Below, in pieces: positions 33,782 to 35,358 of a stretch of DNA of 64,000 nucleotides (the stretch's first letter is position 1; each line of letters begins with the position of its first letter). The DNA is taken from the IMG/VR virus record IMGVR_UViG_2918982202_000003; one strand, 5' to 3'. The notes under the pieces are model-generated. The model did not search any database. It saw only the letters and a list, made by a program, of their open reading frames with translations, and was not told where the DNA came from. The position numbers and the translations under genes were made by a program. This DNA comes from a virus. Taxonomy: Duplodnaviria > Caudoviricetes.

Positions 33782-33892
33782 CTATGCCGCCAACCCTGCC
33801 TTCCTGAAAGCCCCACGCTCGCGCCGCTTCAGCTCGTCGAGCGCGTATTCCCGGCCGGCCCGGTCCACGAAGCGGTCGATGTTAAGGCCGCC
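33782..33892 (-). pseudogene. Orphan C-terminal remnant resembling a MuF/SPP1-gp7 minor head protein
   Basis: No start codon; reads GGLNIDRFVDRAGREYALDELKRRERGAFRKAGLAA*, like the ends of portal-adjacent MuF proteins as I recall them. Confidence 0.55.
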
Positions 33893-33898
33893 CCTTGA

Positions 33899-34144
33899 TC
33901 AGGCGGCCTTCACCGTGTCGCGTCCGGCCGCCGTAATCGTGAAGCTCTTGTAGTCGTCCGCTATCTCGAGGACGCCGCCGCCGGCCGCCTTCAGCGCGGC
34001 GTAGGTCAGCCCCGGCGGCTCGAGGATGGGGTCGTTCGGTTCGATACGGCCGTGGGCGTCGCCGATCATGCCGCCCTCGCCCTCGGCACGGGCCACCATT
34101 TCGATCGCGTCGCCGTCGGTGTGAAAGTACCAGCGCATGGGCAT
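33899..34144 (-). CDS. Small acidic protein coupled to the metallopeptidase (candidate inhibitor/immunity)
   Basis: 81 aa; ATG overlaps the peptidase TGA. Confidence 0.65.
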   Translation of the reverse strand: MPMRWYFHTDGDAIEMVARAEGEGGMIGDAHGRIEPNDPILEPPGLTYAALKAAGGGVLEIADDYKSFTITAAGRDTVKAA

Positions 34145-35358
34145 CAGGCGCCCCCGATCAGCTTTCGGATGTGAGCGGCCACGCGCGGGAAGCGCGAGGT
34201 CAGGGTCTCAACTCTACCGACCGGCGTGCCGTTGACAAGTTCCGAGAAGGTCTCTGCGAACATTTCGGATGGCCCGGCATCGCCGGGCTGCAGGAAGTAG
34301 CGGTGCTCGCCGTCGCGCGTGCCACCGGTCCTGAGGTATCGCGCGACGTCGGCATCATAGGCGGAGCGAAACGCGGCGGTCCGGCTCTCGTAGCGCCGGG
34401 CATCGTCGTAGGCGTGCCCGATCTCATGGGTCAGGACCGTATCGGCCCGGCCTGTCGGCTGGTACTTGCCCGTTACGCGTAAAAGCGCAGTCTCGCTGAC
34501 GATGACCCGGCGCAGACCTGGGATGTACGCGCCATCGACCTCCTTCCATGTCGATCCCGGCAACCACCCTCGCGGGTGCTGATCGGCCAGGTCTGGCGCC
34601 ACATCTATGAGGCGGGCTGGCGAATGGACCGCGACCTGCGCCTGCCGCAGCGCGCGGCGGACGGGCGGCGGCACCTTCTTCCAGGCTCCTCGAACCTGCG
34701 CGCGGAAGGCGGGCGAGGTGCCGTTGCCGAAGTTCAGATCCTGGTCGCCGGGCTGCGGCCCCTCTGGATCCTTCATACTCCGCGGGCCGCGCGGTCCGTC
34801 GCCCGCCGGAAGTCTCTCGCGTTCAGCTTGGAGGCGGCCCACTCGCATGTCGGCTGCCACGACGCGCATACCGTAGGAGCGACCCTTTGGATGACGCGAG
34901 ACGAACTGCTCGACCGTGATGCCGAGCGGATACTTCTTCGAGGTCCCGAGGCCGATCAGGTAATCGTCCCCGCGGAGAGGACCGGTGACGGTGACGGTGT
35001 GGGCCCGGAAGCCGCCGTCGTTCGGCCGCCAGCCTGCCGCCTCGAACTTGATCCGCCCAGCCTTATGATCCGCCGCCATAACCCGCAGCGCGTAGGCCCG
35101 ACCGCGGGGATGGCTTGAGGCGAACCCCTCGACGGTATCGTGGCCTTGGTACTTCCGGACTCGGCTCGACTGCACTGCGATCCGGTCCTCGCCGGTGACG
35201 CCGCTGTCCTTCAGCCGCTGCGCGCCGACGGTGAGCTTCTTCGGCGCGTCGTCGCCGGCACCTGGCTTGTCGGCGAAGCGCCCGGCCTCGCGGCGTACCT
35301 TGCTCTCGTCGAACTTCGTGTCGCCCCGGCGAGCGGAGCGACGGCGAGGCTTCTTCAC
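34144..35358 (-). CDS. Portal-coupled protein with C-terminal anthrax-lethal-factor-like zinc metallopeptidase domain
   Basis: THEIGHAYD, RYFLQ, SEMFAETF, SRFP motifs; N-terminal FDESKVRREAGRFADK; GTG overlaps the portal stop. Confidence 0.75.
   Translation of the reverse strand: MKKPRRRSARRGDTKFDESKVRREAGRFADKPGAGDDAPKKLTVGAQRLKDSGVTGEDRIAVQSSRVRKYQGHDTVEGFASSHPRGRAYALRVMAADHKAGRIKFEAAGWRPNDGGFRAHTVTVTGPLRGDDYLIGLGTSKKYPLGITVEQFVSRHPKGRSYGMRVVAADMRVGRLQAERERLPAGDGPRGPRSMKDPEGPQPGDQDLNFGNGTSPAFRAQVRGAWKKVPPPVRRALRQAQVAVHSPARLIDVAPDLADQHPRGWLPGSTWKEVDGAYIPGLRRVIVSETALLRVTGKYQPTGRADTVLTHEIGHAYDDARRYESRTAAFRSAYDADVARYLRTGGTRDGEHRYFLQPGDAGPSEMFAETFSELVNGTPVGRVETLTSRFPRVAAHIRKLIGGA

Follow-up and report, generated by a model that had tools for sequence, protein, structure and literature searches.

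The stretch of DNA considered here, 64,000 nucleotides of the IMG/VR record IMGVR_UViG_2918982202_000003 (Duplodnaviria; Caudoviricetes) and called the window in what follows, carries a prophage of the siphophage type that is rich in GC (~68%) and has its genes on the minus strand. Directly behind its portal gene lie genes for a 404-aa protein (P0001) and an acidic protein of 81 aa (P0002). On balance we favour the reading that the 404-aa protein represents one allele within a cargo system that is polymorphic and linked to the portal, and that this protein is packaged, injected and restrained by its small partner. Four parts would make up such a system: an acidic tail on the portal, a translationally coupled and tagged cargo gene, a payload that can be swapped, and a small protein specific to that payload. 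The support that we cite for it is the coupling or fusion to the portal, the swappable payloads, the co-occurrence with the portal tail and the payload-specific partner. The features concerned are as follows.

35355-36911, minus strand: portal, 518 aa, DUF4055 type (PF13264, E 6e-21; phrog_145, E 8e-104)
35355-35456, minus strand: C-terminal acidic tail of the portal (~residues 487-518, ...ITDGDLAGLFAPEMLDRTR), first element of the putatively imported block
34144-35358, minus strand: 404-aa cargo protein P0001 (header tag, two winged-helix-like units, M34 peptidase)
35275-35313, minus strand: header tag FDESKVRREAGRF, a variant of the consensus F-[DN]-E-x-x-HPR-x3-G-[RK]-F
34816-35229, minus strand: a ~60-aa unit present twice, at residues ~44-106 and ~120-181 (51% identity between the repeats over 39 aa, E 3e-13)
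34147-34746, minus strand: M34/ATLF-type zinc metallopeptidase domain (residues ~205-404), with HEIGH at 34414-34428
33899-34144, minus strand: 81-aa acidic partner P0002

The portal open reading frame (ORF) ends in ...CGG TGA, and has 4 nt (GTGA) in common with the 404-aa ORF, whose start is a GTG; the stop of the latter shares 1 nt with the ATG of the 81-aa ORF (TGATG). These stop-to-start overlaps bear out the translational coupling of the three genes that had been proposed in the original prediction, made from the letters of the window. The motifs it had read in the 404-aa protein, the acidity of the 81-aa protein, a start-less frame behind it and a separate MuF gene are likewise all present as described there. 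A fusion of portal and cargo by -1 frameshifting was also considered, and no classical slippery heptamer was seen by eye at the GTGA overlap.

A predicted lethal-factor-family peptidase

The 404-aa gene is present as a single copy in the genome, and its product is basic (isoelectric point, pI, 10.4). The C-terminal half carries the motifs HEIGH (residues 311-315), YFLQ (354-357), EMFAE (365-369) and FP (390-391). Searches with the protein itself gave no match in Pfam (E up to 1), PHROGs, NCBIfam or the PDB sequences. A large-database search returned eight full-length relatives, 38-43% identical in that search and 41-45% in the nine-sequence alignment. Residues H311, E312, H315, Y354, Q357, E365, F367, A368, E369, F371 and P391 are invariant across the nine homologs, and the window protein keeps 26 of the 26 invariant family positions, including HExxH, the Tyr and the Glu.

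Pfam ATLF (PF07737) is matched by eight of the nine family members (best E 7e-17). The profile of the nine sequences matches the Pro-Pro endopeptidase (PPEP) PPEP-2 (6fpc) with E 1.2e-9, also PPEP-3 and PPEP-1/Zmp1, and anthrax lethal factor (LF) with E about 1e-3; in the profile alignment the HExxH motif, the catalytic Tyr (Y354) and the segment E365-MFAE369 line up with PPEP-2, the last two with its Y and its TEYFAE segment. An AlphaFold model has a per-residue confidence (pLDDT) of 80-95 over residues 205-404, and Foldseek aligns it with PPEP-2 (E 4e-7, target TM score 0.72), with similar results for PPEP-1 and PPEP-3 and a weaker one for LF (E 1.7e-4). Because the family-profile matches, the matching fold and the invariant residues of the catalytic motifs point the same way, we regard the C-terminal half as an apparently intact zinc endopeptidase of family M34, nearer to the PPEPs than to LF. 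The lethal-factor-like metallopeptidase that had been named from the window is hence supported by the Pfam matches of the homologs, the profile and the fold.

An N-terminal module shared by many payloads

Residues ~1-110 of the 404-aa protein share 50-68% identity with the N-termini of proteins that differ at the C-terminus, where they have either ADP-ribosyltransferases (ARTs; PF03496) or unrelated domains. This region has a pI of 10.8 and holds FDESKVRREAGRF at residues 16-28, which aligns to the HPR..GRF header of the homologs and occurs nowhere else within the window. The shared N-terminal module (N-module hereafter) consists, in this order, of a basic leader, the header, a conserved KPGAG.DAPK linker and a ~60-aa beta-alpha-alpha-beta unit. 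The core of this unit reads HPKGRAYALR.LAADHKAGRI.F, or HP[KR]GR.Y.LR..AAD...GR[IL] across copies; both copies of the window protein are modelled by AlphaFold2 with pLDDT 90-97. Foldseek, run on the N-module, found nothing at E <=0.001, and the weak resemblance of the ~60-aa unit to winged helices is a lead from the model rather than a result. The possibility that the N-module is a MuF domain was examined and rejected: hhalign against an alignment of four MuFs gave a probability of 0.1%, and there is no PF04233 or PHROG match.

A profile of the N-module was searched against 1.84 billion representative proteins and retrieved 136, about 35 of them with the whole module. According to a Pfam scan of 32 small whole-module proteins, 11 carry ADPrib_exo_Tox, three ART and three ATLF, and the rest have no Pfam domain. 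The C-termini fall into at least 10 payload clusters (ARTs and at least eight further ones), a lower bound, as the single-linkage clustering merged the ART and LF-like payloads via the second winged-helix-like repeat. The other ~100 matched proteins are 700-7334 aa long and match with the header only (the first ~30-40 profile positions), each of them 3-16 times; in 68 of 86 large profile-matched proteins the strict motif HPR..G[RK][FW] occurs three times or more, at a spacing of ~200-450 aa. Since the header recurs between the modules of these giant phage proteins, we read it from the sequences as the module-boundary motif of polyvalent-type phage proteins. The tag of the window is of the variant KV[HR]R, which is found again in P0025, P0034 and L013.

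That the N-terminal motif is common to other head-module cargo, as had been suspected from the window, holds: it stands in front of many payloads, occurs in fusions with portals and is repeated within giant phage proteins. For the tag, the winged-helix-like unit and the portal tail, we found no named description in Pfam or in the literature (including PMC5512222 and PMC9503650); the N-module as a stand-alone trafficking domain, the winged-helix-like unit and the co-transferred portal tail thus appear to be undescribed in the sources that we examined.

Linkage to the portal and its acidic tail

The tagged gene follows the portal gene, with overlapping or abutting stops and starts, in the window and in the related loci L001, L003, L004, L007, L012 and L014-L018. 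Every recovered locus with a portal nearby has its tagged gene either abutting the portal or following other tagged genes. The latter is the case in L010, where the LF-like gene stands behind two other tagged genes, so that three lie in tandem. These two extra genes (176 and 242 aa; L010:4739-6001), placed between the portal and the LF-like gene, share the same tag and a short HPKG...ALREL...HKRGEI.F unit, are 67% identical to each other over 51 aa, encode no peptidase and have no partner of their own.

The portals that adjoin cargo genes differ in family, comprising two very divergent DUF4055 types and PF04860, and altogether the N-module adjoins, or is fused to, portals of three portal families. 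In-frame fusions of the N-module to portal C-termini occur in P0031 (PF04860), P0034, P0035, L013 and P0045; the order in P0035 and L013 is Phage_portal_3, module, ART. P0034 (961 aa) consists of Phage_portal_3, the anti-CBASS enzyme Acb1 (E 2.6e-44), the portal-tail motif, the tag with the N-module, and a C-terminal domain of ~180 aa that is unassigned. It represents a natural portal-anchored protein with two payloads.

A peptide of the form (A)V(T/S)D(D)(D/E)L..LF.(P/A)(D/E).L (VTDDDL..LF.PE.L) ends every portal that precedes an N-domain gene, and in the portal-module fusions it stands 20-30 residues before the header. As a control for the association of tail and cargo, we used 70 usable IMG/VR loci with PF04860-type portals related to that of L007 (37-88% identity): tail and cargo were both present in two loci and both absent in 68, and no locus had only the tail or only the cargo. 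Closest to the window, the portal of L011 is tail-less; it ends at 492 aa, 8 codons beyond the point where homology breaks off at 35457, and L011 lacks tail, cargo and partner together. We take these patterns as sequence evidence that tail, cargo and partner are gained or lost together, that is, for co-inheritance, which is no proof of interaction.

L005 (104-13094) has an LF-like cargo gene (469 aa) and a 74-aa partner in a 16-kb contig with genes for an integrase, an HNH protein, an HK97-type capsid and a tape measure, and no portal or terminase was called between those genes. This contig may be a satellite-like or degraded element with cargo for the head of another phage.

A small protein tied to the peptidase payload

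The 81-aa partner has a pI of 4.6. It has no match in Pfam, PHROGs, NCBIfam or the PDB sequences, and its hits in the ESM Atlas are sub-threshold (<0.9). Homologs with 40-56% identity lie behind the LF-like gene in L001, L003, L005 and L010, and all five LF-like cargo genes examined have a partner homolog next to them. Behind the ART cargo, in L004, stands an acidic, unrelated protein of 57 aa. A search of 5.8 billion proteins with the partner-family profile yielded seven members only; five of these seven lie on contigs equal in size to those that bear LF-like cargo genes. The window partner is of full length and 73% identical to another member. Because the homologs follow LF-like genes, the ART cargo has an unrelated neighbour and the family is restricted to this clade, the partner is, judged by its distribution, specific to this peptidase payload, in agreement with the effector and partner pair that the original prediction had seen here. 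A role as inhibitor, immunity protein or holding factor would fit these data, and it is likely that the partner keeps the peptidase in check.

In L003 (11458-11784) the partner is longer, 108 aa, owing to an added peptide at its C-terminus (...TDDDLKRLFSPEML...). This extension is nearer to the portal tail of the window than to that of L003 itself and is probably a recombination scar of cassette exchange.

History of the locus: probable import of the cassette and loss of a MuF gene

The start-less frame behind the partner bears on how the cassette came to lie in the window. Three further features are relevant.

33782-33893, minus strand: MuF remnant, the last ~37 codons and the stop, start-less and in frame behind the TGA of the partner
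32191-35456, minus strand: variable block of 3.27 kb, replaced by an unrelated 1.24 kb in L011
26375-27388, minus strand: resident late MuF, 337 aa (PF04233, E 3.4e-9; phrog_3517, E 3e-112)

The frame (GGLNIDRFVDRAGREYALDELKRRE... at 33785-33892, then a stop) encodes a peptide 73-78% identical to MuF residues 325-361 in L004 and 328-363 in L001 (E 2e-17 and 2e-16, respectively). At the DNA level, 33772-33893 is 78.7% identical over 122 nt to the 3' ends of these MuF genes (E 1.5e-22; L001:12479-12598, L004:12116-12228), and the 3' end of the partner gene is homologous to the same loci as well. The orphan frame is thus the tail of a post-portal MuF, as had been inferred, and the window has lost ~1 kb by a deletion within the locus, which took away MuF codons 1 to ~327. 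The further claim, that the cassette had replaced the MuF gene, does not stand. Portal, cargo, partner and MuF follow each other in this order in L001, L004, L012 and L018; the cassette therefore normally lies between portal and MuF, and the loss in the window is a separate deletion inside the imported block. No MuF remnants were found behind the partner in L003, L005, L007 and L010.

The second, full MuF gene that had been noted at 26375-27388 is confirmed by its PF04233 and phrog_3517 matches. Its identity with the late MuF of L003 is 64%, but with the post-portal MuFs of L001 and L004 it is no more than 19-23%. The suggested independence of the cargo from MuF is upheld in part: the cargo has no MuF domain and some carriers (L007) show no MuF gene in the head module, but the phage of the window still has one.

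L011 aligns collinearly with the window, at ~91% nucleotide identity, only over 38500-35457 (terminase to portal) and 32190-30423 (scaffold to capsid), and its block of 1.24 kb contains neither N-module nor partner. The window portal is 56% identical to that of L003, and its residues 1-489 are 92% identical to the L011 portal; the body of the portal is L003/L011-like, and the last ~30 portal codons and the cargo N-terminus are L004-like. According to the most economical history that the sequences suggest, there were two steps. An L001/L004-type phage would have been the source of a block of tail, cargo, partner and MuF, which recombined into an L003/L011-type backbone with a late MuF of its own; the imported, redundant MuF would then have been deleted, with its last 37 codons left behind.

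A model of portal-linked delivery and its alternatives

Based on these results, we propose that the cargo is made beside the portal in near-stoichiometric amounts, and that the N-module would hold it at the portal vertex inside the procapsid, perhaps via the acidic portal tail. The cargo is probably loaded into the head and enters the host along with the DNA. At infection it would exit with the DNA, and the peptidase would cut a host protein early; in the producing cell the partner would bind the peptidase as inhibitor, immunity protein or holding chaperone. A retention of the cargo at the portal may be compared with that of SPP1 gp7. A counter-defence role is plausible by analogy, because Acb1 shares the architecture and because no other effectors are predicted as often to be packaged in the head as ARTs and zincins.

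Several points weigh against this model. Packaging and injection are read from context, namely the portal coupling, the fusions and the co-occurrence with the tail, and toxicity and the binding of partner and portal tail are predictions. The loci with tail and cargo belong to few, mutually related lineages, and the two could co-occur simply because they belong to one recombination unit that goes back to fusions of portal and cargo. The window protein itself falls below the thresholds of Pfam, PHROG and NCBIfam, so that its family membership comes via homologs and fold, and its tag, as a KVRR variant, is without the consensus His-Pro. Structural matches of the ~60-aa unit are weak (VIA-align Z <=5.5) and mostly to winged-helix/RRE domains. 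Furthermore, the N-module is rare, with no occurrence in 400 other genomes of the same order. Finally, an immunity gene in a late operon would not protect a lysogen, which makes "immunity" in the classical sense doubtful.

The likeliest of the alternatives, though we consider it unlikely, is a producer-side toxin with its antidote, for which the portal site would be a permissive hotspot. The protease would be released at lysis, or would work in the lysogen as a toxin against other bacteria, in exclusion or abortion, or as a moron that resembles a toxin-antitoxin system. The region between portal and scaffold is indeed variable, with unrelated blocks in the window and L011 and a Tad3-like gene in L001, and a toxin gene followed by a small partner is the typical layout of toxin-immunity pairs. 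There is also P0020, a related LF-like protein with a hydrophobic N-terminus, which lies in a chromosomal, non-phage context with a 109-aa ORF behind it. However, the 404-aa protein has no signal peptide, its stop-start overlap with the portal puts it into the late operon, and the N-module, which also occurs as an in-frame fusion to portals from two Pfam families, strictly co-occurs with the portal tail; insertion into a hotspot fails to explain why an N-module is conserved while the payloads change.

A little less likely still is a morphogenetic or processing enzyme of the head that cuts header tags, the portal tail or the scaffold. Autoproteolysis by zincin-like domains of head-packaged polyvalent proteins has been proposed (PMC5512222), the tag lies at module boundaries of giant proteins, and family scans of the proteins of the window head module recognised no prohead protease. 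This explanation is at odds with syntenic relatives that have an ART or other payloads in the same slot, and with L011, which is 91% identical and has no such gene, so that the peptidase is not a core assembly function; moreover, a partner restricted to this payload makes more sense as a check on a harmful enzyme than beside a housekeeping one. That the cassette is a decaying, non-working passenger, to which the MuF remnant as a sign of recent deletion in the block, the tag without His-Pro and the missed Pfam threshold would correspond, is improbable given two intact ORFs with preserved overlaps, the complete set of invariant family positions, a KV[HR]R tag that turns up again in independent proteins, portal fusions among them, and the full-length partner.

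Portal-linked delivery of a restrained peptidase remains the explanation that we prefer. A bolder version of it, which we offer tentatively and would at present rather doubt than assert, is that portal tail and basic tag with N-module form a portable two-part docking system that crosses unrelated portal families as one cassette and brings any payload to the portal vertex for injection. If this is true, the docking pair would constitute a general, MuF-independent capsid-targeting mechanism of siphophages, with payloads such as a protease, an ADP-ribosyltransferase, an anti-CBASS nuclease and others.

Gene order and neighbouring genes

The genes of the minus strand are arranged in the order terminase, portal, 404-aa gene, 81-aa gene, a variable stretch, scaffold-like gene, capsid, adaptor, HslV-like gene, MuF, tail chaperones, tape measure and J-like tail protein. 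The remaining features that we annotated are the following.

36917-38464, minus strand: large terminase
33226-33774, minus strand: 182-aa ORF with its ATG at 33774 and an HEVVH motif, directly after the MuF remnant
29976-31142, minus strand: scaffold-like gene and major capsid gene
27388-27846, minus strand: 152-aa ORF between head-tail adaptor and late MuF (phrog_1040, "peptidase HslV family", E 3e-22)
24743-26332, minus strand: 529-aa ORF with a TTG start and no family match
19859-23377, minus strand: tape measure

The interval from portal or MuF to scaffold looks like a hotspot of accessory genes: L001 has a Tad3-family gene (PF25185) and a DUF305 gene between MuF and scaffold (13371-13811), and the window holds unrelated small genes there. 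Among these, the 182-aa ORF has no match in Pfam, PHROGs or NCBIfam; it is a member of a bacterial family that is conserved and uncharacterised (ESM Atlas feature score 0.97), with a predicted fold that resembles peptidase-MA gluzincins (TM 0.6-0.7 to M1, M61 and DUF2268 clusters). It would be a second zincin-like gene, in a variable block of lower GC (63%). The product of 27388-27846 is Ntn-hydrolase-like and is encoded within the morphogenesis operon. The 529-aa ORF with the TTG start overlaps shorter ORFs (24676-25155, 25231-25692 and 25905-26426), at the positions that the tail terminator and the major tail genes occupy in L003, and is probably a high-GC artefact.

Comparison with known systems

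With the members of peptidase family M34 (PPEP-1/Zmp1, PPEP-2, PPEP-3 and LF; PF07737), the 404-aa protein has in common the HExxH motif, the downstream Tyr, the E-x-F-A-E zinc-ligand segment and the fold. It differs from them in a sequence identity of only ~20%, in the missing signal peptide and in being phage-borne in a cytoplasmic setting; compared with LF, it lacks the protective-antigen-binding and substrate-docking domains.

The MuF polymorphic toxins of temperate phages occupy the post-portal slot with a conserved N-terminal module, a variable C-terminal toxin and a small ORF (<150 aa) next to it (Jamet et al. 2017, PMC5576092). Metallopeptidases and ADP-ribosyltransferases are common among their payloads, and delivery with the DNA was proposed (PMC5576092). 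The cargo system resembles them in its slot right after the portal, in the variable C-terminal toxin domain and in the small downstream ORF. In contrast to them, its N-module is not MuF, a separate short MuF follows the pair in relatives, and the module accompanies a specific portal tail and can be fused to the portal.

For polyvalent proteins anchored by portal or MuF, head packaging and injection have been predicted (Iyer et al. 2017, PMC5512222; Iyer et al. 2022, PMC9503650). The header F/W-D/N-E-x-x-HPR-x3-G-R/K-F/W, the zincin and ART payloads and the portal fusions are shared with these proteins. Whereas polyvalent proteins have 2-15 domains, the 404-aa protein has a single payload, is encoded by a free-standing, portal-coupled gene and comes with a payload-specific partner. 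The system would work like the MuF toxins and the polyvalent proteins, yet it fails the defining feature of each, as it has no MuF domain and a single payload.

A short N-terminal capsid-targeting sequence loads diverse proteins, namely the internal proteins and Alt, into the head of T4, and the SPP1 minor head protein gp7 is held by the portal and ejected. The short N-terminal address for diverse proteins recalls the former, a minor head protein held at the portal the latter. There is no sequence similarity to either, the window has no recognised prohead protease that could remove the tag, and docking at the portal tail is our inference.

To our knowledge, how proteins are selected for head loading outside T4 is largely unclear, and the anchors recognised so far are confined to fusions with MuF or with the portal. 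If our model is correct, the locus adds a third, separable arrangement of a portal tail peptide and an N-terminal module on the cargo. At least ten payloads use this module, one of them fused beside a known anti-CBASS enzyme, and the unannotated payload families may be early-acting enzymes of host takeover or counter-defence; the M34 peptidase with its private partner is one of these payloads. A natural empty site (L011) and natural fused and split forms are available for comparison. The general idea of an address for head cargo thereby becomes a concrete question about two short peptides.

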